Source: Gammaproteobacteria bacterium (GTDB taxonomy: Bacteria > Pseudomonadota > Gammaproteobacteria > Steroidobacterales > Steroidobacteraceae). From it: a DNA stretch of 64,000 nucleotides. Positions 20,228 through 63,734 of this stretch are shown here, piece after piece. Location of the stretch: contig JBQTHP010000099.1 of assembly GCA_052389755.1 (NCBI GenBank), forward strand, positions 3,562-67,561. The letters run 5' to 3'. The notes below the pieces were generated by a model. The model did not search any database. It was given only the letters and a program-made list of their open reading frames with translations, and was not told the origin of the DNA. The translations under genes and the position numbers were made by a program. The number at the start of each line of letters is the position of its first letter. Within the stretch, counting starts at the first letter, position 1.

Positions 20228-20249
20228 CGGGGTCGCGTCGGCAGCCTCG

Positions 20250-21278: not shown

Positions 21279-23212
21279 TGTGCGGAATCGTCGGACTCAC
21301 ATTCGCTGAAGGCGAGCTCGGTGCTTCCGTCGAGGCAGTCCGCCGCATGTCGGGTTCGATCGTGCATCGCGGTCCGGACGACGAGGGCGTGTACTCCGGC
21401 GAGGGCGTGGTGCTCGGCATGCGCCGCCTTTCCATCATCGATCTTGCGGGCGGGCATCAGCCGATCGCAAACGAAGACGAGACCGTGTGGGTGGTGTGCA
21501 ACGGCGAGATCTACAACTTTCGCGAGTTGCGGGCCGAGCTCCGGCGCGCCGGTCATCGCTTTCGGACGGGCAGCGACGTCGAGGTGCTCGTGCACCTGTA
21601 CGAGGAGCACGGCGATCGTTTCCTGGACAAGGTATCCGGCATGTTCGCGTTGGCGCTGTGGGACGTCAGGCGACGGCAGCTGACGCTCGCGCGGGACCGG
21701 CTCGGCATCAAACCGCTCTACTACACCGAATCGCAGGGACGGTTCGGCTTCGCGTCCGAAGTGAAGGCGCTGCTCACCGTGCCCGGCGTGCGCGCGAGCA
21801 TCGACCGCCAGGGTCTGCGCGATCACCTCGCGCTCGGCTATGCCGTCGCGCCTGTAACGATCTTCGCTGGCATCCGCAAGCTGCCGCCGGCGACGAAGCT
21901 CGTCTGGACGCCGTCGGGATGGCGTACCACCGTCTACTGGGCGCCGCCCGATCGGACGGACGAGCAGCTCGAGGAAGCGGACTGCATCGAGCTCATTCGG
22001 GCCGAGCTCCGGCGCGTGGTCACGGAGCACATGGTGAGCGACGTGCCGATCGGCGCGTTCCTGAGCGGCGGCATCGACTCGAGCGCCGTCGTCGCTCTCA
22101 TGGCCGAGCGCAGCGACCGGCCGGTGAACACCTATTCCATCGGATACGGCGGCGACGCCTCGGCCAGCTATTACAACGAGCTGCCGTATGCGAGCCAGGT
22201 CGCGCGGCAATTCGCGACACTTCATAACGAGATCGTGGTGCATCCGGACGCTTCGGCGCTGTTGCCGAAGCTGCTGTGGCATGTGGAGGAGCCGTTGAGT
22301 GACAGCGCCACGGCAACGACGTATCTCGTCTCCGACCTCGCTGCCAGACACGTGAAAGTGATCCTCTCCGGCGTCGGCGGCGACGAGCTCTTCGCCGGCT
22401 ACACGCGATATCTCGGCGATCATTACACGCGCCGTTACCGGCAGCTGCCAGGCTGGCTGCGCCGGCACGTCATCACTCGCATCGCGCGCGCTCTTCCGAG
22501 CGGCCGGCACAGCCGCGTCATGGATCTGTCGCGCTACGCGAGAAAGTTCGTCGGTGCGAGCGAGCTCGGATGGCGCGAGCAGTACCGCCGGTTCATGGAG
22601 ATTCAGACGCGCGATCAGCTGGCTGTCCTGCTCACCGACGCACCAGACGTTCCCGATGGCCTCGATCGCGTCCTGTCGGAGGAGACCGGTGCTGACCCGC
22701 TCCTGCGGCTGCTGCGCGTCGATGCGCGCACGCAGCTCGCCGAGGATCTGCTGCTGCTCACTGACAAGATGACAATGGCGCGTTCCATCGAATGCCGCGT
22801 ACCGTTCCTCGATCACCGCCTGGTCGAGGCCGCGGCACGGATCCCGGCGCGACTGAAGCTGCGGCGCGGTGAGCTGAAATACGTGCTGAAGCGGGCGCTC
22901 ACGGGCATTCTCCCGGATACGATCCTCGAGCGAGGCAAGCGCGGTTTCGGTGCACCGATCGGCGCCTGGTTCAAGGCCGATCTCAGACCGCTGCGAGACA
23001 CGCTGCTGAGCGAGGCTGCGGTCGAGCGGCGCGGACTGCTCGCGTGGCCGGCGGTGCACGAGCTGCTCGAAGCGCACGATGCGAGTCGCGAGGACTACAC
23101 GGACCTGATCCTCACGCTCGTCAATCTCGAGATCTGGTGCCGCATGTTCCTCGACGGCCAGAGCGCGGACGATGTCGGTCACGAGCTTGCCGAGCAGACT
23201 CTCGCGGCTTGA
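21278..23212 (+). CDS. asparagine synthase (glutamine-hydrolysing) family amidotransferase, paralog 1
   Basis: Starts MCGIVGL (Ntn Cys2) at the TGATG junction with the FemAB gene, and contains SGGIDSS (PP-loop). The 957-aa ORF-track entry from 20339 is an out-of-context upstream extension. Confidence 0.9.
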   Translation: MCGIVGLTFAEGELGASVEAVRRMSGSIVHRGPDDEGVYSGEGVVLGMRRLSIIDLAGGHQPIANEDETVWVVCNGEIYNFRELRAELRRAGHRFRTGSDVEVLVHLYEEHGDRFLDKVSGMFALALWDVRRRQLTLARDRLGIKPLYYTESQGRFGFASEVKALLTVPGVRASIDRQGLRDHLALGYAVAPVTIFAGIRKLPPATKLVWTPSGWRTTVYWAPPDRTDEQLEEADCIELIRAELRRVVTEHMVSDVPIGAFLSGGIDSSAVVALMAERSDRPVNTYSIGYGGDASASYYNELPYASQVARQFATLHNEIVVHPDASALLPKLLWHVEEPLSDSATATTYLVSDLAARHVKVILSGVGGDELFAGYTRYLGDHYTRRYRQLPGWLRRHVITRIARALPSGRHSRVMDLSRYARKFVGASELGWREQYRRFMEIQTRDQLAVLLTDAPDVPDGLDRVLSEETGADPLLRLLRVDARTQLAEDLLLLTDKMTMARSIECRVPFLDHRLVEAAARIPARLKLRRGELKYVLKRALTGILPDTILERGKRGFGAPIGAWFKADLRPLRDTLLSEAAVERRGLLAWPAVHELLEAHDASREDYTDLILTLVNLEIWCRMFLDGQSADDVGHELAEQTLAA

Positions 23213-24710
23213 GGCGCTCCGGGCGGCCGTGAGCATCGGGCGCGGTGCGCGCGTGTGGCTCGCCGTGGCCGGACTCGCGGCGCTCGTCGTGGCCATATAC
23301 AGCGAGAGCTTTCTCGCCATCGTGAAGCTGTGGACGCTGAGCGCCTACGCTCACTGCTTTCTCGTGTTTCCGATCGCGTTCTATCTGCTGTGGCGCCGCC
23401 GCCAGGCGCTGGCCGCGATCGCGATCGAGCCGAGCTGGCCAGGGCTCGCTCTCGTGTGTGGCCTGGCTGTCGCCTGGTTCGTGGGGCGCGCGATCGCATT
23501 GCAGGCGCTGGAGCACGCCGCCGCGATCGCTGCGATTCCCGCGATGGTGCTCGCGGTAATGGGCACGCGCTTCCTGCGCGCAGCGCTGTTGCCGATGGTA
23601 TTCCTGTTGCTGGCCGCTCCGGTCGGCGAGTTTCTCATTCCCGTTCTGATGGAAGTGACGGCGGCCATCGCGAGCTTGCTCCTCGGTGTCGTCGGCATCC
23701 CCGTGTATCGCGAGGGCATGTTCATCAGTCTGCCGGGCGGAGACTTCGAAGTCGCCGAGGTCTGCTCGGGATTGAAGTACCTGCTCGCCAGCCTGCCGCT
23801 CGCGTTGCTGTTTGCGTCGTGGGCCTATCGCCGGACGCTCCATCGCGTGGTGTTCGTCGCCGTCACGGTAGGTGTGTTCATCGTGGGCAATGGCCTGCGG
23901 GCGTTCATCGTGATGATCGTCGCCTCCGGGTCGGACCTGCGCTATTTCGCGGGCCAGGATCACGTCGTCTTCGGAAACGTGTTGTTCGTCGCGCTGCTCG
24001 CGCTCGTCTGCTGGGTGGGCTGGAAATACGCCGATCCGCCCGAGGCAGCGAAAGCGATCGGTCCAGCGGACTCGCACGCAGGAAGCGCCGTGCGCTCGAT
24101 CGCGGTCGCGGCCGCGGCGGCCGCGAGCCTCTCGGTCGGTTCCGCCGCCCATGCCTGGCGCGTGCCGGTGGCAGGGCCGGCCCCGACCGCGCCGCGGCTG
24201 CCGGCGCTCACCGGCTGCACCGGTCCCGGCGAATGGGCCGCCGACTGGACGCCGGTGCTGCTCGGAGCAAGTCTACAGACGCGGGCCACGTATCGCTGCG
24301 GCGAGATAGAAGTCCACATGCTGGTCGCTGCCTACCGCGGCACGAACCAGGGCCACGAGCTGGCGAGCAACGCCAATGTGCTCGTGCCTCAGGCGTGGTC
24401 CAGCAGCGGCTCGCGCGCGGACGCGCAGCTTGATCTCGGCGCAGACCGCACCCTGCTCATGAATGAAATTGCCATCGCTCGGTCCAGCCGTGCACTCTTC
24501 GCGTGGTACTGGTACAGCGTGAACGACGAGCCGACCCGTACGCCCCGCGGAGTGAAAGTGCGCGAAGCGCTGGGGGCGATCTTCCTGAAGCCCACCGTCT
24601 CCAGAGCGTACCTCGTCGCGGCCACTGGCCCTGCGGATCGCATCGAGGCGCTGCGCGGTCCGGTGATCGACCTTGCTCGAGAGGTCTGGCACGCACGGGA
24701 GGCGCGATGA
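23172..24710 (+). CDS. xrtA: exosortase A (XrtA/EpsH) fused to an EpsI-family domain
   Basis: The N-terminal ~300 aa is polytopic with exosortase-like blocks (YAHCFLVFPIAFYLLW, FEVAEVCSGLKYL, GNGLRAFIV). The C-terminal ~200 aa is soluble and resembles EpsI (TIGR02914), which is often a separate gene. Confidence 0.85.
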   Translation: MSVTSLPSRLSRLEALRAAVSIGRGARVWLAVAGLAALVVAIYSESFLAIVKLWTLSAYAHCFLVFPIAFYLLWRRRQALAAIAIEPSWPGLALVCGLAVAWFVGRAIALQALEHAAAIAAIPAMVLAVMGTRFLRAALLPMVFLLLAAPVGEFLIPVLMEVTAAIASLLLGVVGIPVYREGMFISLPGGDFEVAEVCSGLKYLLASLPLALLFASWAYRRTLHRVVFVAVTVGVFIVGNGLRAFIVMIVASGSDLRYFAGQDHVVFGNVLFVALLALVCWVGWKYADPPEAAKAIGPADSHAGSAVRSIAVAAAAAASLSVGSAAHAWRVPVAGPAPTAPRLPALTGCTGPGEWAADWTPVLLGASLQTRATYRCGEIEVHMLVAAYRGTNQGHELASNANVLVPQAWSSSGSRADAQLDLGADRTLLMNEIAIARSSRALFAWYWYSVNDEPTRTPRGVKVREALGAIFLKPTVSRAYLVAATGPADRIEALRGPVIDLAREVWHAREAR

Positions 24711-25876
24711 GGGCGGTCGTCGCGCGATCCGTGGATCCCCGCCCGCTGATCGTCCACGTGGTGTTTCGGTTCGACTACGGCGGCCTCGAAAATGGAGTGG
24801 TGAATCTCGTGAACGGCCTGCCGGAGAACGCGTTTCGTCACGTGATCGTGGCGCTTTCACAGGCGTCTGGCTTCGCGAACCGCATCTGGAGCACGGGCGT
24901 GCAAGTACACGAACTGAACAAACGGCCGGGTCACGACCCTGCCGCCTACCTCCGGCTGTTTCGCCTGCTGAAATCCCTTCGCCCGGCCATCGTTCACACT
25001 CGCAATCTCGGTACGCTGGAGGGCGCGCTGGTCGCGCGGCTCGCCGGTGCGCCATGCCGTATCCATGGAGAACACGGCTGGGACGTGCACGACGTGGACG
25101 GCGCGAGCCGCCGCTATCGCGCGATGCGCAAGCTCATCAATCCGGTGATCGACCGATTCGTGGCCGTATCGCGCGAGCTCGAGAGGTGGTTGACGGGAAC
25201 CGTCGGCATATCGCCGAGCAAGGTCGTTCGAATCTGCAACGGAGTCGACACGGCGCGGTTCACGCCTGCCGGCACCGCGCGGGACGCTCTTCGTTTCGGG
25301 CGGTTTCCGCGCGAAAGCCTCGTGGTCGGCAGCGTGACGCGTTTCAGCGAGATCAAGGATCCCCTCAATCTGGTGCGAGCCTTCATCGCGGCGCGCGGAG
25401 ATCCGGAGGGTGGTGCGCTGCGGCTCGTCATGGTCGGCGACGGCCCGTTGAAGCCTCAGGCGGAGCGTCTCCTGCGCGATGCGGGCGCCGCCGATGCCGC
25501 GTGGCTGCCCGGTAGCCGCGACGACGTGCCCGAGATGATGCGTGCCATGGACGTGTTCGTGCTGAGCTCCCGTCGCGAGGGAATCTCCAATACGATTCTC
25601 GAGGCCATGGCGTCGGGATTACCGGTGGTTGCGACGGCCACCGGCGGTAATCCCGAGCTCGTACTCGATGGTGTGACGGGGCAGCTCGTGCCTCCGTCGG
25701 AGCCGGCGGCGCTCGCGCGAGCGCTGGTCGCTTATGCCTGCAGCGCCACGGCACGCGCGGCGCACGGTCGTGCTGCGCGCGCGCGCGCGGAACGCGAGTA
25801 CTCGCTCGGCCGCATGGTGGCCGACTACGAGGCGCTCTATCGGGAACACTGCGTCACGACGGGAGAGGCGGCCTGA
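24707..25876 (+). CDS. glycosyltransferase family 4, PEP-CTERM/EpsH1 system-associated
   Basis: ATGA overlap with the xrtA stop. LIVHVVFRFDYGGLENGVVNLVN is the N-terminal block of the TIGR03088-type sugar transferase. C-terminal EGISNTILEAMASGLPVVAT is a GT4 E-x7-E region. Confidence 0.85.
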   Translation: MRAVVARSVDPRPLIVHVVFRFDYGGLENGVVNLVNGLPENAFRHVIVALSQASGFANRIWSTGVQVHELNKRPGHDPAAYLRLFRLLKSLRPAIVHTRNLGTLEGALVARLAGAPCRIHGEHGWDVHDVDGASRRYRAMRKLINPVIDRFVAVSRELERWLTGTVGISPSKVVRICNGVDTARFTPAGTARDALRFGRFPRESLVVGSVTRFSEIKDPLNLVRAFIAARGDPEGGALRLVMVGDGPLKPQAERLLRDAGAADAAWLPGSRDDVPEMMRAMDVFVLSSRREGISNTILEAMASGLPVVATATGGNPELVLDGVTGQLVPPSEPAALARALVAYACSATARAAHGRAARARAEREYSLGRMVADYEALYREHCVTTGEAA

Positions 25877-27822
25877 TGTGCGGCATCACGGGTATCGTCG
25901 ACCTACTCGATCAGCGCCCGGTGGATGAGCGCGTTCTGAGGGCGATGAACGCCTCGTTGAGCCACCGCGGCCCGGACGGCGACGGCTTTCACATCGAGCC
26001 GGGGGTCGGCTTCGGACATCGCAGGCTCTCGATCATAGACCTCGAAGGTGGCAAGCAGCCGCTCTATAACGAAGACGGAAGCGTCGTCGTCACGTTCAAT
26101 GGCGAGATCTTCAACTTCATGGAGATCGAGAGAGAGTTGCGGCACCGGGGACACGTCTTTCGCACGCGGTGCGACACGGAAGTGATCGTTCACGCGTGGG
26201 AGGAATGGGGCGAGAGTTGCCTGCAGCGATTCAACGGCATGTTCGCCTTCGCGGTATGGGATCGACGCCAGAAAGCCCTGTTCATCGCGCGCGATCGTCT
26301 CGGCGTGAAGCCGCTGCACTATGCCGTGCTGCCCGACGGCCGCCTGGTTTTCGCATCGGAGCTCAAGGCAGTTGTCGCGCATCCCCAGGTCTCCCTCGGC
26401 ATAGATCCTCAGGCCATAGAGGAGTACTTCGCCTTCGGCTACGTTCCGGATCCGAAGACGATCTATCACGCGGTCAGGAAACTCGAGCCGGGTGCGTACC
26501 TGAGCGTGCGGCGGGGAGCGGCGAAGATCGCTCCCGTGCGGTACTGGGACGTGCCGCTCTCGGGCAAGAAGCTTCCGGCGAGCCCGCCGTCGCACTGGGA
26601 GGCGGAGCTTCGCGAGCGGCTGCAGGAATCGGTTCGCAAGCGTCTCATCTCGGACGTGCCGCTGGGCGCCTTCCTTTCCGGAGGCATCGATTCGAGCGCG
26701 GTCGTGGCAATGATGCGCGAGATCGGAGCAAACCGGATTCTCACGTGCTCGATCGGTTTTCGGGAGCCGCAGTTCGACGAGTCGAGCTACGCCGAGATCG
26801 TCGCGCGCGCAAAGAACACCGATCATGAGACCGAGATCGTCGAAGCCTCGGACTTTGGTCTGCTCGAACGGCTGGTGGACCTCTACGACGAGCCCTACGC
26901 CGACAGCTCCGCGATACCGACCTATCGAGTCTGCCAGCTCGCTCGGCGCCACGTGACCGTGGCGCTCTCAGGTGACGGCGGTGATGAGACCTTCATCGGA
27001 TACAGGCGGTACAAGCTCTTCGCGATGGAGCAGTCGGTGCGCGATCGACTTCCGGCATCAGTGAGGCGCGCCATCTTCACGCCGCTGGGACGCTGGTTTC
27101 CAAAGCTTGATTGGGCGCCGCGTTTCCTGCGCGCCAAGACGACATTCCAGGCGCTGGGGCGCGACACGATGGACGCCTACCTTCATGGCGTATCGGTCTG
27201 CTCCGACGAAGACCGCGCGGCTCTTTTCTCCGCCGGGTTCCGCCGAGACCTCCAGGGCTACGATGCGCGTGAGGTGTTCCGTCGTCACCTCGAGGGCAGA
27301 TCGTTCGACGACCCGCTCTCGCTCGTACAATACCTCGACTTCAAGACCTATCTGCCGGGCGACATCCTGACGAAGGTCGATCGCGCGAGCATGGCTCACA
27401 GCCTCGAAGTGCGCACGCCGTTTCTCGACTACGAATTCATCGCGTGGGCTTCGCAGCTGCCCTCCAACGTCAAGCTGCGCGGTGGCGTGGGCAAGCACAT
27501 TCTCAAGGAAGCGCTGCGGCCGCTTCTGCCCGCGGAGATCCTGTTTCGGTCGAAAATGGGTTTTGCCGTACCCATCGATGCGTGGTTCCGCGGATCACTC
27601 AAGTCCAGGGTCGCAGGCGCAATTCGGAGTCCGCACATGCGCGACTCCGGGATCTTCGATACGGATCACCTCGATCGTCTGCTCCGGGAGCACGCGAGTG
27701 GCCGGCGCAACCACAGTATGGTTCTGTGGGCGCTTCTGATGTTCGAGGGATTCATGCGCCGACAAACCGCGCCCGCCGCCCGCCTCGTCGAGACGATGCC
27801 ACCGGCGGCAGTGGCCATCTGA
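25876..27822 (+). CDS. asparagine synthase family amidotransferase, paralog 2 (exosortase A-associated amidotransferase 1-like)
   Basis: MCGITGIVD (Cys2), HRGPDG, SGGIDSSAV. It follows the GT directly (shared A of TGATG-type junction at 25876). Confidence 0.9.
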   Translation: MCGITGIVDLLDQRPVDERVLRAMNASLSHRGPDGDGFHIEPGVGFGHRRLSIIDLEGGKQPLYNEDGSVVVTFNGEIFNFMEIERELRHRGHVFRTRCDTEVIVHAWEEWGESCLQRFNGMFAFAVWDRRQKALFIARDRLGVKPLHYAVLPDGRLVFASELKAVVAHPQVSLGIDPQAIEEYFAFGYVPDPKTIYHAVRKLEPGAYLSVRRGAAKIAPVRYWDVPLSGKKLPASPPSHWEAELRERLQESVRKRLISDVPLGAFLSGGIDSSAVVAMMREIGANRILTCSIGFREPQFDESSYAEIVARAKNTDHETEIVEASDFGLLERLVDLYDEPYADSSAIPTYRVCQLARRHVTVALSGDGGDETFIGYRRYKLFAMEQSVRDRLPASVRRAIFTPLGRWFPKLDWAPRFLRAKTTFQALGRDTMDAYLHGVSVCSDEDRAALFSAGFRRDLQGYDAREVFRRHLEGRSFDDPLSLVQYLDFKTYLPGDILTKVDRASMAHSLEVRTPFLDYEFIAWASQLPSNVKLRGGVGKHILKEALRPLLPAEILFRSKMGFAVPIDAWFRGSLKSRVAGAIRSPHMRDSGIFDTDHLDRLLREHASGRRNHSMVLWALLMFEGFMRRQTAPAARLVETMPPAAVAI

Positions 27823-31297: not shown

Positions 31298-33169
31298 TCA
31301 GGGCGCCACGCGGTGCTCCTGAAACCATTGCTCGAGCATCGCGAAGGTCCACACCAGCACGCCGTAATAGCTCGCGTCTTCCTCGCCGTGGAGCTGCCGC
31401 AGTCGATCGATGAACTCCGCGCGGATCACGCGTCGGGCGCGCAGTCCCGCCAGGCTGGTCTCGATCATCTCGGCCAGGCGCGAAGAGCGCTGGAGCCACA
31501 GCCCGAACGGCAGGCCGAAACCATGCTTGGTCTTCTGAATGATCTCCCGGGGCAGGAACGTCGCCATGGACCGCTTGTAGAACGTGCGCAGGTCCGTGCC
31601 GCGCATCTTGAGGCCGGCGGGGACACGGGTCGACAACTCGATCACGTCCCGATGCAGCATCGGATAGGAGACACGAACGCCTGCGAGCTCGCACATCGTT
31701 CCGACCTTGCGCAGATCGTTGTCCGCCAGCGTGAAGCGCCAGTCGTAGTGGAGCATGTGATCGATGAGGGCGACGGCCGGCGACGACGAATACACGCGAC
31801 GCATGTGCTGCAAAGGCGCGCTCGTGTCGATCACGTCGAGCAGATCGGGATGAAGGACCATCTCGGAACCGAGCCGGTGCAGGAAGTTCCAGCTCTCGAG
31901 CCGGTCGGGCAGCGGCGTATTCGCCTGCGCGACGTAGCCGCGCGCCTTGCGTACGAGCCTGTTCGTCAACCGCACCGGCATCCGGTCCAGCATGGGTTCG
32001 AGCAACCGCGTACGGAACAGGCCGGGAACGAGCTTGTAGCGTTCGAACACCATCTGCTCCGCGTACCGCTTGTTCCCCGCGAACAACTCATCACCGCCGT
32101 CGCCCGCCAGCAGGTGTGTCATGCCGCTCTCGCGAGCCAGCCTCGCGCAGCAGTAGGTAGGCAGAGCGGAGGCGTTCCCGAATGGCTCGTCATAGGCGCG
32201 CGCGATACGGGGAAGCAGGTCGACGATGTCGTCGGGGCCCACGGTGTAGTATCGGGCGTCGAACCCGAAGTGCGCGGCGGCAATTCGCGCGTAACGCAGC
32301 TCGTCGTAGTCTTCCAGGCCGAACCCTATGGAAAACGTCCGTGCCGGGCGCGCGGTGACCTTGCTCAGGTAGCCCGCGACGGTCGAGCTGTCGAGCCCGC
32401 CGCTCAGAAACGCTCCGGTGGCATCGTCGGGCTGCGCCGCGCGCACGCCGGCCTCGAGAGCCGCGTGCAAGGAGCGTTCCGGTGCGTCAGAGCCTTTCCG
32501 GCGCGGCTCTGCGAAACGCGGTTGCCAGTACGTCTCCTGCCACAGGCGATCATCCTCGACGAACACTGCTGTGGCAGGCGGGATCTTCTGGGTCGCCTCG
32601 AAGACCGTCTGCGGCGAAGGGATCATGTGAAAGAAGACATAACTGAGAAGCGACTGATGTGCGATCCGCGGCGCCCTGCCGAAAGCGCGCGCGGCGGCTT
32701 CCGCGGACGACGAAAACGTCAGACCCTCATCCGTCCTGCGGAATGCGAGCCGCTCGATGCCCATTCTGTCGACGGCCAGTATGGCGGCACGCGCTGCACC
32801 GTCCATCACCACTACCGCAAAGCTGCCTTGCAGCAGCTCGAGAAAGCGCTTCCCGTGCAACCGGTAAGCTTCGATTACCGCGTGCGCGTGGCTTCGCGCT
32901 CGCGTGATGCGCCCGTCGCTGGTGTCCCATGCCGGCGTTCCCCGTATGACCGCGGCGACGTCGCCGACTCTTGCAACGGAGGGACCGACAAATACCCACG
33001 CATCGCCGGCAAGGACCGGAGGAACCCCCGGGGCGTCGGAAGACAGAGGCTGTCCAGCCGCTTCCGTAAGGTGTCGCTTCGCCGAGGAAGTAAGCCCGGT
33101 TGCCGACGGCGCGCCGATCCAGCCGGACAGACTCAACATTGCATGCAAACCCTCGCGCAAGAGCGGCAT
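31298..33169 (-). CDS. asparagine synthase-related protein lacking the N-terminal Cys nucleophile, paralog 3
   Basis: C-terminal synthetase domain with FLSGGLDSSTV. The N-terminus reads MLSLSGWIG (alternative ATG at 33139) where Cys-type enzymes have MCGIxG. Confidence 0.8.
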   Translation of the reverse strand: MPLLREGLHAMLSLSGWIGAPSATGLTSSAKRHLTEAAGQPLSSDAPGVPPVLAGDAWVFVGPSVARVGDVAAVIRGTPAWDTSDGRITRARSHAHAVIEAYRLHGKRFLELLQGSFAVVVMDGAARAAILAVDRMGIERLAFRRTDEGLTFSSSAEAAARAFGRAPRIAHQSLLSYVFFHMIPSPQTVFEATQKIPPATAVFVEDDRLWQETYWQPRFAEPRRKGSDAPERSLHAALEAGVRAAQPDDATGAFLSGGLDSSTVAGYLSKVTARPARTFSIGFGLEDYDELRYARIAAAHFGFDARYYTVGPDDIVDLLPRIARAYDEPFGNASALPTYCCARLARESGMTHLLAGDGGDELFAGNKRYAEQMVFERYKLVPGLFRTRLLEPMLDRMPVRLTNRLVRKARGYVAQANTPLPDRLESWNFLHRLGSEMVLHPDLLDVIDTSAPLQHMRRVYSSSPAVALIDHMLHYDWRFTLADNDLRKVGTMCELAGVRVSYPMLHRDVIELSTRVPAGLKMRGTDLRTFYKRSMATFLPREIIQKTKHGFGLPFGLWLQRSSRLAEMIETSLAGLRARRVIRAEFIDRLRQLHGEEDASYYGVLVWTFAMLEQWFQEHRVAP

Positions 33170-33268
33170 CCTACAACGCGGGAAGCGACAAAAACCTCGA
33201 CCGAGGTCCGGTCATCCTGGCCGCCCATCGGCTATTCTTACCGAGCTGTCGCAGAAGAACGGAGAACG

Positions 33269-34411
33269 ATGGCAATACTCTTCTGGGTGGCGTTGGCGGC
33301 GATCGGGTACGTCTACGTCGGTTATCCGCTGCTTCTGATGCTCGTTCGCGCGGCGGGCGGCCGCCGCGTGGTGCGGACCGGAGAACACCGTCCGCCTGTT
33401 ACGCTCGTCATTTCTGCCTACAACGAAGCCGGCGTCATCGCCCGGAAGCTTTCGAACAGCCTCGCGCTCGAATATCCGCGCGGTCAGCTCGAGATCATGG
33501 TGGTTTCCGACGCCTCCACGGACGGCACCGACGACTTCGTGGTTCAGGCGGCCTCGCGGCACGTACGGCTGTTGCGCATGCCGGAACGAGGCGGCAAGAC
33601 CGTCGGTATCAACGCAGCGCTTCGCGAGGCCCGTGGTGAAATCATCGTCTTTTCAGATGCGAACGCCATGTATCGGCCGGACGCCATCGCGCAGCTCGTA
33701 CGGAATTTCGCAGACTGCGCGGTCGGAGCCGTCGTCGGCGAATCGAGCTATGTCGACGCCGACGCAGGCGCGGACAAGGAGGAGACGCTTTACTGGCGAT
33801 ACGAGGTGGCAATCAAGAGTCTGGAATCCGCGATCGGGTCGGTCGTAGGCGGAGACGGGGCCATCTACGCTATCCGGAAGCAGCTGTATCGCGACATGGC
33901 GCCGGACGCGCTTTCCGACTTCGTCAACCCCCTGCAGATAGTGCAATCAGGATATCGCTGCGTGTACGAGCCGCTCGCCCGCTCGGTGGAGAGCGCGACT
34001 GGCGACTTCACGAAAGAGTATCGACGCAAGGTGCGCATCGTGAACCGGGGCTGGCGGGCATTGATTTCGATGAAGGCGCTCCTCAATCCCTTCAGGTTCG
34101 GATTCTTCTCCGTTCAGATCGCCTCTCACAAGTTGCTCAGGTGGCTCACGCCGATCTTTCTCGTCGCATTCTTCTGCGCGAATCTGCTCCTCGTGGGCAG
34201 GGGCGCGATCTACGACGTGGCCTTCACCTTGCAGCTCGGGCTGTACGCTCTCGCGTACGCAGGATACGTTCTGCGCAGACGGGCAAGACTGCCACGCCTC
34301 GTCGCCTTTCCCTTCTATTTCGTGATGGTCAATGCCGCCAGCGCGCGGGGCATCATCGGGGCGTTTCTGGGAGAAACTTATACGACGTGGGCGACGGTTC
34401 GCGTCAGATGA
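33269..34411 (+). CDS. glycosyltransferase family 2 (membrane-anchored, processive-type architecture)
   Basis: GGAGAA precedes the ATG at 33269. N-terminal TM, then VTLVISAYNEAGVI, VVSDASTDGTDD, FSDANA and C-terminal TM helices. The upstream 650 codons of the 1032-aa ORF are antisense to the AsnB-like gene. Confidence 0.85.
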   Translation: MAILFWVALAAIGYVYVGYPLLLMLVRAAGGRRVVRTGEHRPPVTLVISAYNEAGVIARKLSNSLALEYPRGQLEIMVVSDASTDGTDDFVVQAASRHVRLLRMPERGGKTVGINAALREARGEIIVFSDANAMYRPDAIAQLVRNFADCAVGAVVGESSYVDADAGADKEETLYWRYEVAIKSLESAIGSVVGGDGAIYAIRKQLYRDMAPDALSDFVNPLQIVQSGYRCVYEPLARSVESATGDFTKEYRRKVRIVNRGWRALISMKALLNPFRFGFFSVQIASHKLLRWLTPIFLVAFFCANLLLVGRGAIYDVAFTLQLGLYALAYAGYVLRRRARLPRLVAFPFYFVMVNAASARGIIGAFLGETYTTWATVRVR

Positions 34412-34436: not shown

Positions 34437-34688
34437 ATGAACGATATTGACAGAGTTCGGAACGTCTTGCGTGACGCGTTACAGCTGGGTCCACGTGCCG
34501 ACACGCTGGTCGAGCAGAGCCCGCTGCTCGGAGCCATTCCGGAACTGGACTCCATGGCGGTCGTAAACGTGATCACCATGATAGAAGACGAGTTCGGCAT
34601 CGTCGTCGAAGATGAAGACGTCTCGGCGGACATGTTCGAAACCATCGGTTCACTGACAGCTTACGTTGCCAGGAAGGCAAATCGCTGA
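34437..34688 (+). CDS. acyl carrier protein (exosortase A locus type)
   Basis: 83 aa and acidic, with phosphopantetheine-site context LGAIPELDSMAVVNVI. Confidence 0.8.
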   Translation: MNDIDRVRNVLRDALQLGPRADTLVEQSPLLGAIPELDSMAVVNVITMIEDEFGIVVEDEDVSADMFETIGSLTAYVARKANR

Positions 34689-37659: not shown

Positions 37660-38430
37660 TCAGGAAAGCAGTACGTCGGGGCGCAACTGCAAGTGGACCC
37701 GCTGTGATTTCGCGATCGACAGATGTACGTAGGGCGCGATCGTCGCGAACATCAGTTCGACTCCCCAGAGCTTCAGAAAGATCGCCCGAGCTGCGACCTT
37801 TGCCCCGAGACGCCTGTGAGCACGTCGCGTGGCGAGATTGAAGCGTGTCACCCTGCTGAACGTGAAGCGGGCGCCGCGCTTGCGAAGAAATTCGTTGGCC
37901 GCGTTCCAGATCCCGGCGAAGCCGAAGCCCATACGATGCTCGGGCAGGACGAACAGATCAAAGTCGAACACGGCTTCGTTCTCCGGGCGGAGCAGGAATG
38001 TGCATCGGACTTCGTCCTCTGCGTACTCACGAAAGCAGAACCAGATGTACCCGATGAGCTGACCCTTGAAGAATGCACCGAGACATATCGCATTCTGATC
38101 AAAGCGCGATTGCCTGATATCAGGTTGTGCGGGCATCAGTTCGAGCTCGGGATCCCCTCGCGTGATCTGGCGCGATTCGAAGTTCCGGGCCATGCGCGCC
38201 GGAAGCAACGGCTTGTCCACGATCGGTTGAACCATCAGCTCATAGACGTACAAACGCATTCCCGGCGACAAGCGCATCAGTACACGATCGATGCCGTACA
38301 GGAGAGCGGCAGCGACGCCGAGTTCTCTGACGGTACCGAAGAATCGCCGGGTCACTTTTGCCTTGGCTCGGATCCGCTGGAGAGCGCCGGCCTTTCGTGA
38401 CTTCTTCCCAGATCGCCGATCTCCAGTCAA
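37660..38430 (-). CDS. GNAT-like N-acetyltransferase (putative)
   Basis: GQLIGYIWFCFREY...FDLFVLPEHRMGFGFAGIWNAANEFLRKRG is a motif A-like region of the GNAT fold. The basic N-terminal leader makes the true start uncertain. Confidence 0.5.
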   Translation of the reverse strand: MTGDRRSGKKSRKAGALQRIRAKAKVTRRFFGTVRELGVAAALLYGIDRVLMRLSPGMRLYVYELMVQPIVDKPLLPARMARNFESRQITRGDPELELMPAQPDIRQSRFDQNAICLGAFFKGQLIGYIWFCFREYAEDEVRCTFLLRPENEAVFDFDLFVLPEHRMGFGFAGIWNAANEFLRKRGARFTFSRVTRFNLATRRAHRRLGAKVAARAIFLKLWGVELMFATIAPYVHLSIAKSQRVHLQLRPDVLLS

Positions 38431-45817: not shown

Positions 45818-47182
45818 GTGTCCCGCGTGAGTTTCACCAGCGTCCTGTTTCTGCTGGGGTTCATGGCAGGCCTTGGCCTCGCGTTCGTCAAACATCCCAT
45901 CTTCGGACTCATCACTTATGTAGGCGTGTTCTATCTTCACCCGCCCGCCAGATGGTGGGGTTACGCACTTCCGGATCTGCGATGGTCTTTGTTAGCTGCC
46001 GCAATCACATTGCTCGCAGTGTTCGTCGCGCGAAAGAAGCCGGGTCCGCAGCGTTCACGGGAATCCGTGATCATCGGTCTGCTCGTGTTCGTCATGTGGC
46101 TCGGCATTCAGACGCCGTGGGCCCTCAGTCGCGACCTTCACCTGGAACTGCTCACACTGATGGCGAAATACGCGCTGCTGTTGGTGCTCATGCACAAATG
46201 CATCGACTCGGAGCAGCACCTGAAAGTCTTTGTCTGGAGCCACGTCGCTGGTACCTGCTTTCTCGGATGGATTACCTTCACGGAGTACCTGGGTGGTCGG
46301 TTCGAGGGGTTCGGTGCGCCGAACATCGATGAGGCGAACGCAGGTGCTTTGCAGATCGTTACCGGCATATTCGCCGCATCCGGGCTGTTGCTGGCAGGCA
46401 AGCTTACCGAGCGCGCATTCCTGTTGGGCTCCATTCCGCTTATCGTAAATGCATTCGTTGCGACCATGAGTCGCAGTGGGTTTTTGGCGGCCGCGTTCGG
46501 TGGATTCGTCTTCAATCTGTTCACACCGAGCCGCTTCCGTCGGCGCGTTCGCGTCCTGTCGATCCTTGCACTGGTGCTGTTCGCGCTGCTAACCAACCCG
46601 ATCTATTGGATGCGCATCGCCTCCTTGAAGCAGCTCGGCGAAGAAGTGGAGGGCGTCGATACCGGTGCTGGCCGAATCGTGCTTCTAACGGCGCAATGGC
46701 ACATGTTCGGGCAGCATCCGCTCGGGTGTGGACATCGCTGCACGGCGGTCCTGAGTCCGGCGTTTCTCGACGACAAGCATCTGACTGGGATCGGCGAAAA
46801 CCGGGCACGATCATCTCACAGTACTCCCATGAGCATGCTCGTCGAGCACGGCTTTCCAGGGGCACTATTTTATGTCCTGCTGATTGGTTGGACGTCGAAA
46901 GCCCTGCTGAAGGTCCGTCGCGAACATGCAGGCGCCTCGGGATTGGTGGCATCTTTGATCCCGGCCGTCGCCGCAGCGCTCGGCGCCATCACGATCAGCG
47001 ATCTTTTCGTAGACAATATTCGGCTCGAAGTCAGATTCTGGTTCATAGGAATTCTGTTGGCGCTGATGCGAATGCCTGTCATGCACGCCCAACCGGCAGC
47101 CGAAAGCAGTCGGGCGGTGGGCTTCAGACGAACACCTCTGCCGGCGCGGGATGACTCAGAAAGCCGAGCGGGCTCGCCGTAA
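45818..47182 (+). CDS. O-antigen ligase-like (Wzy_C) membrane protein, exosortase A system-associated putative O-glycosylation ligase
   Basis: Polytopic. FVKHPIFGLITYVGVFYLHPP N-terminus, the central loop MSRSGFLAAAFG and HSTPMSMLVEHGFPG resemble TIGR03097-type proteins. GTG start at 45818 (or 45827). Confidence 0.75.
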   Translation: MSRVSFTSVLFLLGFMAGLGLAFVKHPIFGLITYVGVFYLHPPARWWGYALPDLRWSLLAAAITLLAVFVARKKPGPQRSRESVIIGLLVFVMWLGIQTPWALSRDLHLELLTLMAKYALLLVLMHKCIDSEQHLKVFVWSHVAGTCFLGWITFTEYLGGRFEGFGAPNIDEANAGALQIVTGIFAASGLLLAGKLTERAFLLGSIPLIVNAFVATMSRSGFLAAAFGGFVFNLFTPSRFRRRVRVLSILALVLFALLTNPIYWMRIASLKQLGEEVEGVDTGAGRIVLLTAQWHMFGQHPLGCGHRCTAVLSPAFLDDKHLTGIGENRARSSHSTPMSMLVEHGFPGALFYVLLIGWTSKALLKVRREHAGASGLVASLIPAVAAALGAITISDLFVDNIRLEVRFWFIGILLALMRMPVMHAQPAAESSRAVGFRRTPLPARDDSESRAGSP

Positions 47183-48362
47183 GCCCATAGGCGCCGCTCT
47201 GCAGGATCACGATGAGATCGTCGACCTCTGCGCTCGCGAGCTCGACGCGATCCGCGAGTAGATCGAGCGGCGTGCACAACGGTCCCACCACGGACGCGAT
47301 CTCACGTCTGGTTCCCCGCACGCGATTGCCGACGATCACAGGGTAGTTCTTGCGGATGACCTGACCGAAGTTTCCCGAGGCAGCGAGGTGATGGTGCAGG
47401 CCGCCGTCAGTTATCAGAAAGACCTGACCACGAGACACCTTACGGTCGATCACGCGACATACAAAGATGCCGGCCTCACCGACAAGATAACGCCCGAGCT
47501 CCAGTACCAGGGTCGCCTCAGGAAGCTGCATCCGCAGCGCCTCGATCATGCCGGTGAGGTTCGCCGCGATGGGCGCAATGTCGAGCGGTTTTTCACCAGG
47601 GAAGTACGGGATCCCGAAGCCGCCGCCGACGTTGAGAATTCTCACGGGTGCAGGTGCTACGCGCGCGAGGCTCAGTGCGAGTGCCAGAGAGTTCTGCTGG
47701 GCTTCGATGATAGCCTCGGCGCGCAGATTCTGTGAGCCACTGAAGATGTGAAAGCCGATGAACTGCAGCGGCAAACCGGCTATATGTCTGAGCAAGTCCG
47801 GCACGCACTCGGCATCCACACCGAACTGCTTCGGGCCGCCGCCCATCTTCATACCGGATGCCTTCAGCTCGAAGTCGGGATTCACGCGAACCGCTACCCG
47901 CGGGCGGGTACCCGACTGCGCCGCCAACTCGCCAAGGCGCTGCAGTTCGAGCTCCGATTCCACGTTGAGCACGATGCCCGCCGCGACCGCTGCCGCCAGC
48001 TCCGCGGGCGTCTTGCCCGGCCCCGCGAAGCTGATGCGTTCGGCGGGAACGCCGGCATCGAGCGCCACCTGCATTTCGCGGGCGGAAGCAACGTCCACAC
48101 CATCTACGAGCCGACCCAGATACCTGACCACGTCCGGCATGGGGTTGGCTTTCATGGCGTAATGAAGATGTACCGCGGTGGGAAGCATGCGCCGCAGCTG
48201 CGCCACACGATCCGCAAGATGCTGCCGCGCGTATGCGTAGAAGGGCGTTCGTCCGGCCTCGCTCGCGACATCGAGGAGCGATCGTCCGCCGATCGTGAGG
48301 CAGTCGTCGCGTACTCCGAAGAACGGATGTGGAGCATGCTGCGGCAGCGAGTCGAGGCTCAA
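47124..48362 (-). CDS. pyridoxal-dependent decarboxylase (Orn/DAP/Arg decarboxylase fold), exosortase A system-associated
   Basis: FYAYARQHL...HYAMKANP (PLP Lys), GGGFGIPY and SGAYG motifs. It overlaps the upstream ligase gene by 4 nt. Confidence 0.85.
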   Translation of the reverse strand: MSLDSLPQHAPHPFFGVRDDCLTIGGRSLLDVASEAGRTPFYAYARQHLADRVAQLRRMLPTAVHLHYAMKANPMPDVVRYLGRLVDGVDVASAREMQVALDAGVPAERISFAGPGKTPAELAAAVAAGIVLNVESELELQRLGELAAQSGTRPRVAVRVNPDFELKASGMKMGGGPKQFGVDAECVPDLLRHIAGLPLQFIGFHIFSGSQNLRAEAIIEAQQNSLALALSLARVAPAPVRILNVGGGFGIPYFPGEKPLDIAPIAANLTGMIEALRMQLPEATLVLELGRYLVGEAGIFVCRVIDRKVSRGQVFLITDGGLHHHLAASGNFGQVIRKNYPVIVGNRVRGTRREIASVVGPLCTPLDLLADRVELASAEVDDLIVILQSGAYGLTASPLGFLSHPAPAEVFV

Positions 48363-49948
48363 GCGACACCCTCCGCGTACAGAGCTCTGAGCTCTTCCGC
48401 CAACTTCGTGCGATCGTATTTTCCGTTGGGGTTGCGCGGAAGCTCATCCCGCCACTCGACGTGATGCGGCACCATGAATGCCGGGAGCTGCCGTCGGCAC
48501 GCGGCGAGTAGCTCATCCTTGTCGACGGTGGCGCCGCGCACCGGCGTCGCGACGATTACTATCGCCTGGCCGAGCGCGGGATGAGGAACACCGACTGCCG
48601 CGACATCCGCCACCAGCCCGGTATCAAAGACGATCTCTTCGACTTCTGTGGGACTGACGCGATAGCCGGATGTCTTGATCATCTCGTCGCGTCGACCGAT
48701 GAAGTACAGGTAACCTTCCGCGTCCATCCGCACGGTGTCCCCCGACCATACCGCCATTTCCTTCAGCACGAGATTCGGGTCCTGCCCCGGCACGGGCTTG
48801 AAGCGCTCAGCGGTCTTCTCCAGATCGTTCCAGTAACCGAGCGCGACGAGCGAGCCGCGGTGGACGAGCTCGCCCGGTTCGTTCGGTCCGCAGCGGGTGC
48901 CGTCCGGCCGTACCACGATGATCTCGGCGCTCGGAATCGCCTTGCCGATCGAATCCGGTCGTCGGTCGACCTCCGAGGGGGGCAGGTACGTCGACCGGAA
49001 CGCCTCGGTGAGGCCGTACATCAGAAACACCTGCGTGTCCGGCAGTGTGCTGCGCAGTTTCTGCAGCGTGGCACGAGGCATCGCGCCCCCGGAATTCGTG
49101 ATGTAGCGCAGACGTCGCGCGACTTCCGTCGGCCATTCGACGTTGACCAGCTGTGCCCAAAGCGACGGCACACCGGCGAGGCCCGTTACGTGTTCTCGGC
49201 TTGCGATCGTGAGCACGTCCCTGGCAAAGAGGTAGTCCATGAGAACCACGCTGGCGCCGACGTGGAAGGCCGTCGAGAGCTGGCTGAAACCGTAGTCGAA
49301 ACTGAGGGGCAGGGCGGCGAGCAGCCGATCCTGCGGCACGTTGCCGAGGTAGCGCGCGACACTGTGTGCGCCAGTAACCATGTTCTTGTGAGAGAGCACC
49401 ACCCCCTTCGGTTTGCCTGTGCTCCCCGAGGTGTAGAAGATCGCGACGACATCGGCATCGATGACCCGATGCATCTGCCGCGCATCCGCGGCCCGAAGCA
49501 GGGAGTCCCAGGCATGCACCGCGAGTCGATCCGGTCGCGGACGCGGCGAGAAGTTGTCCGTCACTATGAGATGCTGCAAGTCGGGACAGTGGGGCAGCAC
49601 CTCGCCGAGGTCTTGCGCGCGCTCCGGTGAAGTCACGAGAACCCGCACGTTGCAGTCGCGCAGGACGTACCCCACCTGTACTGGCTTGAGCAGTGGATTC
49701 ACTGGTACGAACACGCAGCCGGCGCGCGCCGTGCCGAAGATGGCGACCACGGCTTCCGGCTGCTTCGGCAGGTAGATCGCCACGCGTTCCAGCCGGCCAA
49801 GCCCAAGCTGCATGAGCGCCGTGCCGAAACGCTCGATGCCCAAGCCGAGCGTGCCGTAGTCGAGCGTTTTCCCTTTGAACACCAGGCTCGGCGCGTGGGA
49901 TGCACGTTCGGCCGAACGTAACGGAAGTTCGAACAGCAGTTCACTCAT
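48359..49948 (-). CDS. acyl-CoA ligase (AMP-forming), exosortase A system-associated
   Basis: AMP-binding signature IFYTSGSTGKPKGVVLSH, YGLTE, SGDTVRMDAEGYLYFIGRRDEMIKTSGYRVSPTEVE and PRNPNGKYDR. Confidence 0.88.
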   Translation of the reverse strand: MSELLFELPLRSAERASHAPSLVFKGKTLDYGTLGLGIERFGTALMQLGLGRLERVAIYLPKQPEAVVAIFGTARAGCVFVPVNPLLKPVQVGYVLRDCNVRVLVTSPERAQDLGEVLPHCPDLQHLIVTDNFSPRPRPDRLAVHAWDSLLRAADARQMHRVIDADVVAIFYTSGSTGKPKGVVLSHKNMVTGAHSVARYLGNVPQDRLLAALPLSFDYGFSQLSTAFHVGASVVLMDYLFARDVLTIASREHVTGLAGVPSLWAQLVNVEWPTEVARRLRYITNSGGAMPRATLQKLRSTLPDTQVFLMYGLTEAFRSTYLPPSEVDRRPDSIGKAIPSAEIIVVRPDGTRCGPNEPGELVHRGSLVALGYWNDLEKTAERFKPVPGQDPNLVLKEMAVWSGDTVRMDAEGYLYFIGRRDEMIKTSGYRVSPTEVEEIVFDTGLVADVAAVGVPHPALGQAIVIVATPVRGATVDKDELLAACRRQLPAFMVPHHVEWRDELPRNPNGKYDRTKLAEELRALYAEGVA

Positions 49949-61955: not shown

Positions 61956-63734
61956 TTGAGAACCATCACGGACTGCGAAGCTCAATTGACGATTTTTGCA
62001 GGCATTCTCGCGCGCGGCAAATCGGCCGGCGTACTTCCCGAGCACGCGATCGAGGAGTTGGGCGCAAAGCTCAGTCGCCACGGGCCTGATGCACCGCGCA
62101 TCGTGCGGACTCCACGGTTCGCGCTCGCGACGATCGACCTGAACGTCCTTGACGGCCCGAGCCTCGAGGTCGATCCGACGGGAGCCATGACAGTCCTCGC
62201 GGGCGACCCGATTCTCCGCAATACGGGAGGAGGTCGGACACGGGGAGGCGACCTGCATCGCCTGCATGAAGACTGCAGAGCGCACCGCACGTCGTGTCTT
62301 CGGGACGCGCGTGGTGCCTTTTGCGCGGCGCATATCGATCCCGCGGCTGGACGCGTCTGGCTGATCACGGACAAGCTCGGGCTGCGACCCATCTACTACT
62401 CCGTGCAGCCGCAATACGTCGTCTTCGCTACTGCGTTTCGGATCCTCTCGCAGAGCACGCTGGTGGATCGACGGGGCGATCTGCAGGCGTTGGCCGAAAC
62501 GGCTTGTCTGGGCTATCCACTGGGGCCGCGCTCCCAGCTCGCGCAGGTACGCAGCGTCGAGCCCGGTCAGGTCGTCGAGATCCTTCCGGAGACGATGAGC
62601 ACCGATGCGTATTGGCGGTGGGACGACGTGGAGCCATCGGAGGCGACCGACGAAGAGTTCTGTCGCCGACTGTTCGCGGTGTTTCGCGATGCGATTTCGA
62701 TCCGGCTCGGCGCGCGCAAGCACGCGGCAGCGCTCCTGTCGGGCGGCCTGGATTCCCGCTGCGTGGCCGCCGGGCTGCGGTCGCTCGACGCGCACGTCGA
62801 CACGATAGGCTTCGGTCCCGAAGGTACTGCGGACCAGATATTTGGCCGTCAGGCGGCCGCGGCAATGCGGACGAGGCATTTCGAGCTGACGCACGGCGTA
62901 CCGGATTTCTGGCCGCGGCTCGCGAGCGCGTTCTCGGCATGGCGGCAGCAGGCGCAAGCCGAGGCATGCGGACGATCCGGGGGCCATCTCTGGAGCGGAG
63001 AGGGTGGTGATCGCGTTCTGGCGCCGGTAAATCTGTCCGCCCGCGTGGTGTCCGCGATGCGAAACGGTGCTGTCGAGGCGGCCATCGGCACTTACATGCG
63101 TGACGAACGTGCCGGGCTGCCGCCACGGCTCTTTCAGCCTCGGCTGCGCGATCACATGCTCGCTCTGCCGAGGAGCGGCATCAGGTCGGAACTGGAACGG
63201 CGCACCAGCCACGATCCGGCGCGACGCTTTCATGTCTACGTCCTCACAAACGAATCGCGCCGTAACATCGCCCGACACTTCGAGGACCTCGATCTCAACC
63301 GGTTCGAGCTCGTCATGCCGTTCTACGATTCCGATGTCGTGCAGATCGCGCTCTCACATCGATTCGACCCCTTCATCGCACACCGCCTCTACTATCGCTG
63401 GCTCGCCGAGTTTCCCCCCGAGGTCGCATCAGTTCCGTGGCAGGCGTATCCGTCGTCCGCGCCATGCCCGCTGCCGGTCCCCGACGGAATCCGCATGCAA
63501 TGGGATCGCTGGTATTCGCACCGTGAGCTCCAAACGCGCTGGCAATACCAGGAGTCGCTCGCGGACAACGTCCTGAACGATCGAAAGTTCCCCGATTGGC
63601 TGTTGAATCGGACGCTGCTGCGCTGCGCCAGGGTGCTGCATCGGATGGGGCTTCGCAGCTACGGTTACCTGTTTGAGGTCGCGTCGCCGTTCCTCCAGTA
63701 TCCGCCGGCGTTGCCGAGGGCGTTTGGAGGCTGA
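61956..63734 (+). CDS. asparagine synthase-related protein lacking the Cys nucleophile, paralog 4
   Basis: LLSGGLDSRCVAAG PP-loop. The N-terminal region aligns by eye as (L)TIFAGIL where MCGIAGI is expected. Start uncertain: TTG at 61956 or TTG at 61986. Confidence 0.7.
   Translation: MRTITDCEAQLTIFAGILARGKSAGVLPEHAIEELGAKLSRHGPDAPRIVRTPRFALATIDLNVLDGPSLEVDPTGAMTVLAGDPILRNTGGGRTRGGDLHRLHEDCRAHRTSCLRDARGAFCAAHIDPAAGRVWLITDKLGLRPIYYSVQPQYVVFATAFRILSQSTLVDRRGDLQALAETACLGYPLGPRSQLAQVRSVEPGQVVEILPETMSTDAYWRWDDVEPSEATDEEFCRRLFAVFRDAISIRLGARKHAAALLSGGLDSRCVAAGLRSLDAHVDTIGFGPEGTADQIFGRQAAAAMRTRHFELTHGVPDFWPRLASAFSAWRQQAQAEACGRSGGHLWSGEGGDRVLAPVNLSARVVSAMRNGAVEAAIGTYMRDERAGLPPRLFQPRLRDHMLALPRSGIRSELERRTSHDPARRFHVYVLTNESRRNIARHFEDLDLNRFELVMPFYDSDVVQIALSHRFDPFIAHRLYYRWLAEFPPEVASVPWQAYPSSAPCPLPVPDGIRMQWDRWYSHRELQTRWQYQESLADNVLNDRKFPDWLLNRTLLRCARVLHRMGLRSYGYLFEVASPFLQYPPALPRAFGG

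Follow-up and report, generated by a model that had tools for sequence, protein, structure and literature searches.

The 64,000-nucleotide stretch of DNA analysed here (the window; contig JBQTHP010000099.1 of assembly GCA_052389755.1, positions 3,562 to 67,561, from a bacterium of the Steroidobacteraceae) is a full XrtA/PEP-CTERM exopolysaccharide locus. It carries five genes, for an adenylating ligase, a pyridoxal phosphate (PLP)-dependent decarboxylase, an acyl carrier protein (ACP) and two alpha/beta hydrolases, which on balance we think encode a pathway for decarboxylating an amino acid while it is bound to its carrier, set within the polysaccharide locus. All five were present at the positions given in a preliminary description of the window. 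In a profile search the members of the four named families exceeded the curated whole-protein cut-offs: the ligase (TIGR03098; 48359-49948, minus strand, 529 residues) scored 764.7 bits against 592.35, the decarboxylase (TIGR03099; 47124-48362, minus strand, 412 residues) 606.3 against 478.45, hydrolase 2 (TIGR03101; 34698-35510, plus strand) 228.3 against 202.75 and hydrolase 1 (TIGR03100; 35507-36391, plus strand) 327.7 against 168.45. The ACP (34437-34688, plus strand, 83 residues) was recognised by the Pfam PP-binding model (27.2 bits against 20.8).

What was observed is the family membership of the proteins, the residues of their pockets and active sites, and the coupling and fusion of the genes; from these we infer each chemical step by homology. 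The stand-alone ligase would adenylate aspartate or glutamate and tether it by the side-chain carboxyl to the thiol of the phosphopantetheine arm of the ACP, and the PLP enzyme would then strip the free alpha-carboxyl on the ACP to give beta-alanyl-S-ACP or gamma-aminobutyryl-S-ACP. The active-site cysteine of hydrolase 1 would take up the acyl group and deliver it to an acceptor in the cytoplasm, at a hydroxyl or an amine; hydrolase 2, which appears to be non-catalytic, would pair with hydrolase 1, and its invariant arginine may bind either an acidic acceptor or the arm of the ACP. In the last and least certain step, a side group ending in an amine would be added to the acceptor, most likely an exopolysaccharide repeat unit on its lipid carrier. 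That an amino-acid-like carboxylate is activated, loaded on the ACP and passed on by hydrolase-fold enzymes had been proposed in the preliminary description, and this outline agrees with the families found and with the BtrK and VinN matches presented below. The pathway predicts a mass increase of 115 Da (aspartate) or 129 Da (glutamate) on the ACP, followed by a loss of 44 Da with the decarboxylase.

Ligase, decarboxylase and carrier protein

VinN loads 3-methylaspartate on the carrier VinL, where it is decarboxylated by VinO (PMC11284099), and VinN (3wvn) was the best single-domain PDB match of the window ligase (201.8 bits over residues 40-519). The row above it, linear gramicidin synthase at 237 bits, sums two adenylation domains, and the matches after VinN included further beta-aminoacyl-ACP synthetases (HitB, IdnL1 and CmiS6). 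When the pocket fragment alone (residues 208-374) was searched, VinN scored 83 bits compared to 49 for the next match. VinN contacts its substrate through D230, which binds the amine, F231, S299, and K330 and R331 on a shortened beta13-beta14 loop (PMC11253843); these five residues align with D218, Y219, S286, F317 and R318 of the window ligase, and the alignment across the loop is free of gaps. Thus the Asp, Ser and Arg of the VinN-type pocket are kept, while F231 is replaced by Tyr and K330 by Phe, and in 35 of 72 relatives the F231 and S299 positions are occupied by Ala and Thr. The pocket Asp, Phe and Arg were invariant in all 72. MenE, an enzyme of the acyl-CoA type, reads LFHISG where the ligase reads LSFDYG, with Ile at the position of the amine-binding Asp. 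The pocket therefore looks suited to an amino dicarboxylate, whose amine and second carboxylate it would hold much as those of aspartate are held in VinN, and this likeness implies loading through the side chain. Consistent with this, the ligase is predicted to load aspartate or glutamate onto the ACP by the side-chain carboxyl.

These pocket data bear on the idea that the enzyme is instead, as the TIGR03098 name ('acyl-CoA ligase, exosortase A system-associated') would have it, a fatty-acid ligase serving the lipidation of polysaccharide or PEP-CTERM proteins, with the decarboxylase separately making a diamine from a free diamino acid. Outside TIGR03098, the best general NCBIfam matches of the ligase were indeed fatty-acid-CoA ligases (313.8 bits), its score with the amino-acid adenylation model (258.8 bits) lay below the cut-off of 317.4, and the decarboxylase descends from diaminopimelate (DAP) decarboxylases. 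However, the amine-binding Asp and the carboxylate-binding Arg occur in 72/72 relatives, the pocket aligns best with VinN and the His/Ile signature of acyl-CoA-type enzymes is absent; moreover, the decarboxylase groups with the ACP-dependent BtrK and is, in almost all genomes, translationally coupled to the ligase. We consider a fatty-acid ligase very unlikely.

Two pocket types were apparent among the ligase relatives: Asp-Tyr ... Thr-Asn-Ser in 37, including the window and members of Nitrosomonas and Massilia, and Asp-Ala ... Ala-Asn-Thr in 35, from Roseateles, Thauera, Aromatoleum and Halioglobus. No decarboxylase column co-varied with the pocket type, and 112 decarboxylase positions were near-invariant across both. 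The notion that the two types reflect two substrates was consequently left unsupported and, since no column of the decarboxylase follows it, the split probably reflects compensation and not a different substrate. Ligase paralogues below the family cut-off (about 300-450 bits) were seen at three loci (L045, L046 and L049, in genomes G002, G001 and G039, respectively); their pocket motifs (FDYGLYQ, TNTAAAL and TECK-RV) are nearer to those of VinN than are those of the exosortase-associated ligase. On the contig itself there was just one other ligase-like match, at 22% identity and beyond the limits of the window.

The decarboxylase has the alanine racemase fold, and its best solved relatives were two entries for BtrK (7ru7 and 2j66) at 278 bits, against 184 bits for the best DAP decarboxylase. 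BtrK converts L-glutamyl-S-BtrI to GABA-S-BtrI, GABA being gamma-aminobutyrate (PMC7857480). The two enzymes have in common an insertion of six residues that contains HHH, GGLHHHLAASGNFGQVIRKNYP, where DAP decarboxylase has MNDLIRPS......IYNAYH; the insertion follows the pattern GG(L/M)HHH...R.NYP in both, and both carry GPLCTP.D in place of the GPICETGD of DAP decarboxylase. The window enzyme shared 40% identity with BtrK, compared to 34% with Aquifex LysA and 26% with the LysA domain of its own genome. In a maximum-likelihood tree the exosortase-associated decarboxylases formed a group with BtrK (96/98) that excluded both LysA sequences. Its PLP lysine K71 and H205, GGG(F)G, E288, R291, C363 and Y392 are invariant. 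Scores, insertion, motifs and tree thus all mark a decarboxylase of the BtrK/VinO type rather than one for free amino acids and, because the enzyme falls in the BtrK clade, decarboxylation most likely follows loading, with the amino acid already bound to the ACP.

The score of the window decarboxylase with the LysA model TIGR01048 (236.7 bits) was below the cut-off of 297.9. The genome encodes LysA elsewhere (contig C242:5759-6850), fused to aspartokinase in an 873-residue stop-to-stop open frame, and this aspartokinase/DAP decarboxylase is a closer match to A. aeolicus LysA than the window enzyme is. By these sequence comparisons the window decarboxylase is not the housekeeping LysA of the genome. 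Its TTG start shares four nucleotides (TTGA) with the stop of the ligase gene, an arrangement by which it is read as translationally coupled to the ligase. Among the matches listed, its closest relative (73% identity) came from a metagenome-assembled genome (MAG) of the Steroidobacteraceae.

A longer substrate, meso-diaminopimelate or 2-aminoadipate, yielding lysyl- or 5-aminovaleryl-S-ACP, was also considered. It would fit with DAP decarboxylases being the closest relatives after BtrK (184 bits), and with the departures from the VinN pocket, where K330 has become Phe and F231 Tyr or Ala. On the other hand, the MNDLIRPS segment of DAP decarboxylase is replaced by the BtrK-type GGLHHHLAASGNFGQVIRKNYP insertion, and the remainder of the ligase pocket is VinN-like, including the length of the loop, so that a longer substrate appears highly improbable.

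The phosphopantetheine serine of the ACP lies in the sequence ELDSMAVV. Its best PDB match was 2lki (80.4 bits over 80 residues), which has the same PELDSMAVVNVIT motif; this is a nuclear magnetic resonance structure deposited as a 'putative uncharacterized protein' with no stated function, presumably as a structural-genomics target from Nitrosomonas europaea. No second copy of the ACP was found elsewhere in the genome. In 18 of 59 loci the ACP gene stands divergent from the ligase gene and no more than 1.5 kb away. The protein is therefore, as an on-carrier module demands, a stand-alone carrier that is linked to the ligase and retains the phosphopantetheine serine.

The hydrolase pair and the proposed acyl acceptor

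The hydrolase 2 and hydrolase 1 reading frames overlap by four nucleotides (GTGA). The nucleophile elbow of hydrolase 1 reads LWGLCDAASA, with Cys in 22/22 relatives from diverse genera, and the Asp (in SG.D.TA.EF) and His (in ADHTF) of the triad were each present in 21/22, giving Cys113-Asp225-His260. Among the best 150 hydrolase 1 clusters at 50% identity, the representatives of 145 had a G-x-C-[DEG]-x-A elbow. In the AlphaFold2 (AF2) model (predicted local distance difference test, pLDDT, 89.9) C113 sits between strand 106-112 and helix 114-123, D225 follows strand 217-222 and H260 follows strand 250-255, which is the canonical topology. Hydrolase 1 thus has the make-up of a catalytic alpha/beta hydrolase whose nucleophile is Cys and not Ser. 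Alpha/beta-fold acyltransferases with a Cys nucleophile are known in the polyhydroxyalkanoate synthases, and since a thiol is suited to accepting the acyl moiety of a thioester and handing it on, hydrolase 1 is predicted to be an acyl-S-ACP:acceptor acyltransferase. That it transfers rather than hydrolyses is drawn from the Cys nucleophile.

Hydrolase 2 was also modelled with an alpha/beta-hydrolase fold (pLDDT 94.6), in which strand 101-107 and helix 109-120 flank R108. The hhalign program paired LWgLR of hydrolase 2 with LWGLC of hydrolase 1 (probability 97.4), and Arg occupied the nucleophile elbow in 24/24 relatives, among which no conserved His, Ser or Cys was seen. An HMMER alignment to PDB 9pic had put Ala112 at the nucleophile position; this was overruled by the AF2 secondary structure and by hhalign in favour of Arg108. 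The catalytic triad is therefore lacking, with an invariant Arg108 at the elbow, and the role of hydrolase 2 is probably that of a partner to hydrolase 1, without catalysis of its own. The preliminary description had called the two proteins paralogous and had assigned transfer or release to hydrolase-fold acyltransferases. They are indeed related, but distantly (the same hhalign comparison gave 18% identity over the N-terminal 132 columns) and they do not share a triad; only hydrolase 1, with its Cys nucleophile, looks catalytic, hydrolase 2 having Arg at that position.

Natural fusions of the two proteins, 550-660 residues long with the hydrolase 2 domain first, made up 38 of the best 150 hydrolase 1 representatives, and are strong evidence that the pair works as one unit. 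Apparent fusions at two loci (L133 and L096) were not counted, as they are probably long-read frameshifts next to a truncated ACP gene. An ACP-hydrolase 2 fusion was seen in one case (L010) and in none of the best 120 of 1166 hydrolase 2 homologues, and is either rare or an error. At three further loci (L015, L016 and L018, in G002, G023 and G010, respectively) we noted tandem alpha/beta-hydrolase proteins of 570-660 residues that fall below the TIGR03100 cut-off and may be a sister family of the pair.

Fold searches with the two hydrolases returned only generic small esterases (template-modelling, TM, scores of 0.55-0.77) and gave no functional lead. Among the matches, however, was DcsB, a trans-acting thioesterase, and alpha/beta hydrolases encoded beside carrier proteins are often thioesterases, those of type II proof-reading misloaded carriers. 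The pair might accordingly release free beta-alanine, GABA or a product N-modified by the AsnB-like or GNAT proteins described below, or hydrolase 1 might proof-read misloaded ACP; the esterase-like folds and the failure to pinpoint an acceptor would be in line with either. Yet making free beta-alanine or GABA by way of a carrier would spend ATP for no gain, the invariant nucleophile is Cys rather than Ser, and editing thioesterases do not feature a conserved inactive partner such as hydrolase 2, which is in many cases fused to hydrolase 1. The association of the set with polysaccharide loci and XrtA (Fisher p = 6.6e-5) also speaks against simple release. We therefore regard thioesterase activity as an unlikely explanation of the pair, and favour acyl transfer.

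With regard to the acceptor, no signal peptide and no real membrane segment was predicted in any of six proteins analysed, which all look cytoplasmic, and the acceptor must therefore be accessible from the cytoplasm. This favours a nucleotide- or lipid-linked sugar unit. The preliminary description had named exopolysaccharide, a lipid and the cleaved PEP-CTERM protein as candidates; of these, the exported, cleaved PEP-CTERM protein is unlikely to be a direct acceptor because the module proteins lack signal peptides and membrane segments. An indirect connection can be envisaged, in which the amine-ended acyl group (beta-alanyl or GABA) on an exopolysaccharide unit serves as the acceptor nucleophile of exosortase A and so ties the PEP-CTERM protein covalently to the polysaccharide. 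Once the unit is exported, its free amine would make a nucleophilic attack on the PEP-CTERM protein bound to the exosortase. The locus also has a FemAB-family gene (20154-21278), the product of which could lengthen the amine by adding amino acids from tRNA. The glycine bridge built by FemXAB has the same acceptor role for sortase A. We consider this proposal quite unlikely.

Linkage of the module and the surrounding locus

The window proved to be an ordinary member of a common cassette. In a collection with one genome per species, at least 594 of the 600 pattern matches listed encoded decarboxylase relatives; those listed came from Gamma-, Beta- and some Alphaproteobacteria, plus one Acidobacteriaceae and one cyanobacterial (Synechococcaceae) MAG. 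The ligase gene lay directly upstream of the decarboxylase gene in 71 of the 80 loci kept, the remainder being contig ends, and the order ACP-hydrolase 2-hydrolase 1 was kept in all 13 complete loci of relatives. This second block was found within 10 kb of the ligase in 18/59 loci, often divergently oriented, and since it is so often apart from the ligase elsewhere, the 10.7-kb gap that separates the two blocks in the window is a normal layout. One genome had ACP, hydrolase 2, hydrolase 1, decarboxylase and ligase genes side by side (G008:C1:951868-957035, L065).

Among 41 relatives, 11 genomes had the ligase, decarboxylase and hydrolase 1 all above cut-off, and XrtA exceeded its cut-off in 8 of these 11 compared to 2 of the 30 others (the Fisher test quoted above). 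G008, with its side-by-side set, gave no exosortase match at E <= 1e-20, so the link between the cassette and exosortase A is not a strict one.

Several observations weigh against an on-carrier pathway of the kind proposed. The analogy of the ligase to VinN is inexact, with Phe at the K330 equivalent and, in half of the relatives, Ala/Thr in place of Tyr/Ser, and sequence does not distinguish aspartate from glutamate as the substrate. The decarboxylase tree has long branches and few outgroups, the folds nearest to hydrolase 1 are those of ordinary esterases (TM about 0.6), and nothing in the analysis points to a specific acceptor. Furthermore, the parts of the module are separable across relatives: the ACP-hydrolase 2-hydrolase 1 block occurs in genomes that have no TIGR03098/TIGR03099 orthologue (G018:C2, L066; G004:C77, L011), and one genome has the ligase and decarboxylase without the hydrolases (G039). 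In another (G003) the ligase was present without the decarboxylase.

Of the window genes outside the five, the one that most frequently lay within 10 kb of the decarboxylase in other loci (27/80) was a paralogue with the asparagine-synthase fold, which we call AsnB-like (31298-33169, minus strand; Asn_synthase 235.8 bits). Its orthologue lay directly downstream of the decarboxylase gene, on the same strand, in 17/70 loci, and adjoined the ACP-hydrolase block in three genomes (G018, G020 and G032), being divergent from the ACP gene in G018. The N-terminal ~90 residues diverge from those of asparagine synthases: orthologues start MSG(L/I/V)CGW, which places the Cys at position 5 and not 2, and the window protein has Ser there. 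With the N-terminal Cys misplaced and replaced in this way, a normal glutaminase function is doubtful. AsnB homologues without glutaminase activity, such as beta-lactam synthetase and the lasso-peptide cyclases, join a carboxylate to an amine of their substrate. It is possible, by analogy, that the AsnB-like protein amidates or caps the new amine and would be a sixth, amide-forming component. There are four AsnB-like genes in the window, at 21278-23212, 25876-27822, 31298-33169 and, more weakly matching, 61956-63734. A 1032-residue open reading frame (ORF) on the opposite strand (31313-34411, plus) was rejected as a single gene, being an overlap artefact: only its last ~380 residues (33260-34411) match a GT2 glycosyltransferase, and the AsnB-like gene lies opposite the rest.

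A GNAT-family acetyltransferase is encoded at 37660-38430 (minus strand; Acetyltransf_1 28.9 bits against 20.7). Relatives of it were near the module in 11/80 loci, and between the ACP and ligase genes in three (L083, L128 and L138).

As locus context outside the five-gene module, the window encodes exosortase A (XrtA) fused to an EpsI domain (23172-24710, plus strand; TIGR03109 246.6 bits against 208, EpsI 52.7 bits). The locus also encodes PrsT, PrsK and PrsR, an export protein, a chain-length determinant and a tyrosine kinase, together with a TIGR03016 outer-membrane protein, the FemAB-family protein already mentioned, the stp2 and stp3 glycosyltransferases, a TIGR03108 amidotransferase, a TIGR03006 deacetylase and a PEP-CTERM protein. 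A glutamate-tRNA ligase gene (7971-9371) is present between those for PrsT and PrsK, a curious neighbour given the aminoacyl-tRNA-dependent FemAB-family gene of the locus; relatives of it lay within 10 kb of the decarboxylase in 7/80 other loci.

In the ammonia oxidisers Nitrosomonas, Nitrosospira and Nitrosovibrio (L077, L080, L081, L084 and L091), the genes for PrsK, PrsR, ligase, decarboxylase and AsnB-like protein followed one another in this order on one strand, an arrangement that suggests control by the PEP-CTERM two-component system. A search for sigma-54 promoters returned 23 matches in the window against 23.8 expected, with none in the ligase leader; sigma-54 control upstream of the ligase or the ACP was dropped, as the matches were at chance level.

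Comparison with known systems

The window is a plain member of the 'exosortase A system-associated' set TIGR03098-TIGR03101 of NCBIfam/TIGRFAMs, with no difference from it and with XrtA in the same locus. As the preliminary description had stated, the set is recognised only bioinformatically: the families have names in these databases, no paper on their function was found in the literature, and the 2006 founding PEP-CTERM paper makes no mention of them. This accessory set has been catalogued for years without an assigned function, and its chemistry is now directly testable. Exosortase A loci underlie floc and biofilm formation by wastewater and soil bacteria (among others Zoogloea, Thauera, Accumulibacter, Nitrosomonas, Steroidobacteraceae), and the module could bear on what PEP-CTERM proteins are attached to. 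If the proposal is correct, on-carrier decarboxylation of the type used for antibiotics would be widely employed to tailor surface polymers, and a Cys alpha/beta hydrolase with an Arg-bearing dead paralogue would be a new, two-part type of acyltransferase.

The logic proposed has precedents in BtrJ/I/K, FlvN/L/O, CtaD/E/F and VinN/L/O. BtrJ, CtaD or FlvN joins the side-chain carboxyl of glutamate or aspartate to an ACP, and alpha-decarboxylation on the carrier by BtrK, CtaF or FlvO then gives GABA or beta-alanine (PMC11350588). The vicenistatin (VinN/VinL/VinO) and fluvirucin (FlvN/L/O) systems have, like the window, a stand-alone adenylation enzyme, an ACP and an alanine-racemase-fold decarboxylase, and in both the carrier receives an acidic amino acid through the side-chain carboxyl, decarboxylation following while the amino acid is still attached (PMC11284099). 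The window ORFs scanned with NCBIfam or Pfam included neither a second adenylation enzyme (VinM) to cap the amine nor a VinK-type acyltransferase nor a polyketide synthase; compared with vicenistatin, the window instead has a Cys-type alpha/beta hydrolase and its dead partner, in a Gram-negative polysaccharide locus.

The butirosin system of Bacillus circulans (BtrI/BtrJ/BtrK) provides the best solved match of the decarboxylase, and its product goes to a sugar, an aminoglycoside. BtrJ, however, is an ATP-grasp ligase whereas the window ligase is an AMP-binding enzyme, and BtrH and BtrG, which carry out transfer and deprotection in butirosin synthesis, are not known to be alpha/beta hydrolases. 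Teichoic acid D-alanylation aminoacylates a polymer of the cell surface by way of a small carrier (DltC), which a dedicated ligase (DltA) loads with an amino acid. It involves no decarboxylase and makes its transfer through the membrane proteins DltB and DltD, neither of whose families was found among the window ORFs scanned. What is new in comparison with all these systems is the Gram-negative polysaccharide-tailoring setting, and the pairing of a Cys-hydrolase with an Arg-pseudohydrolase.

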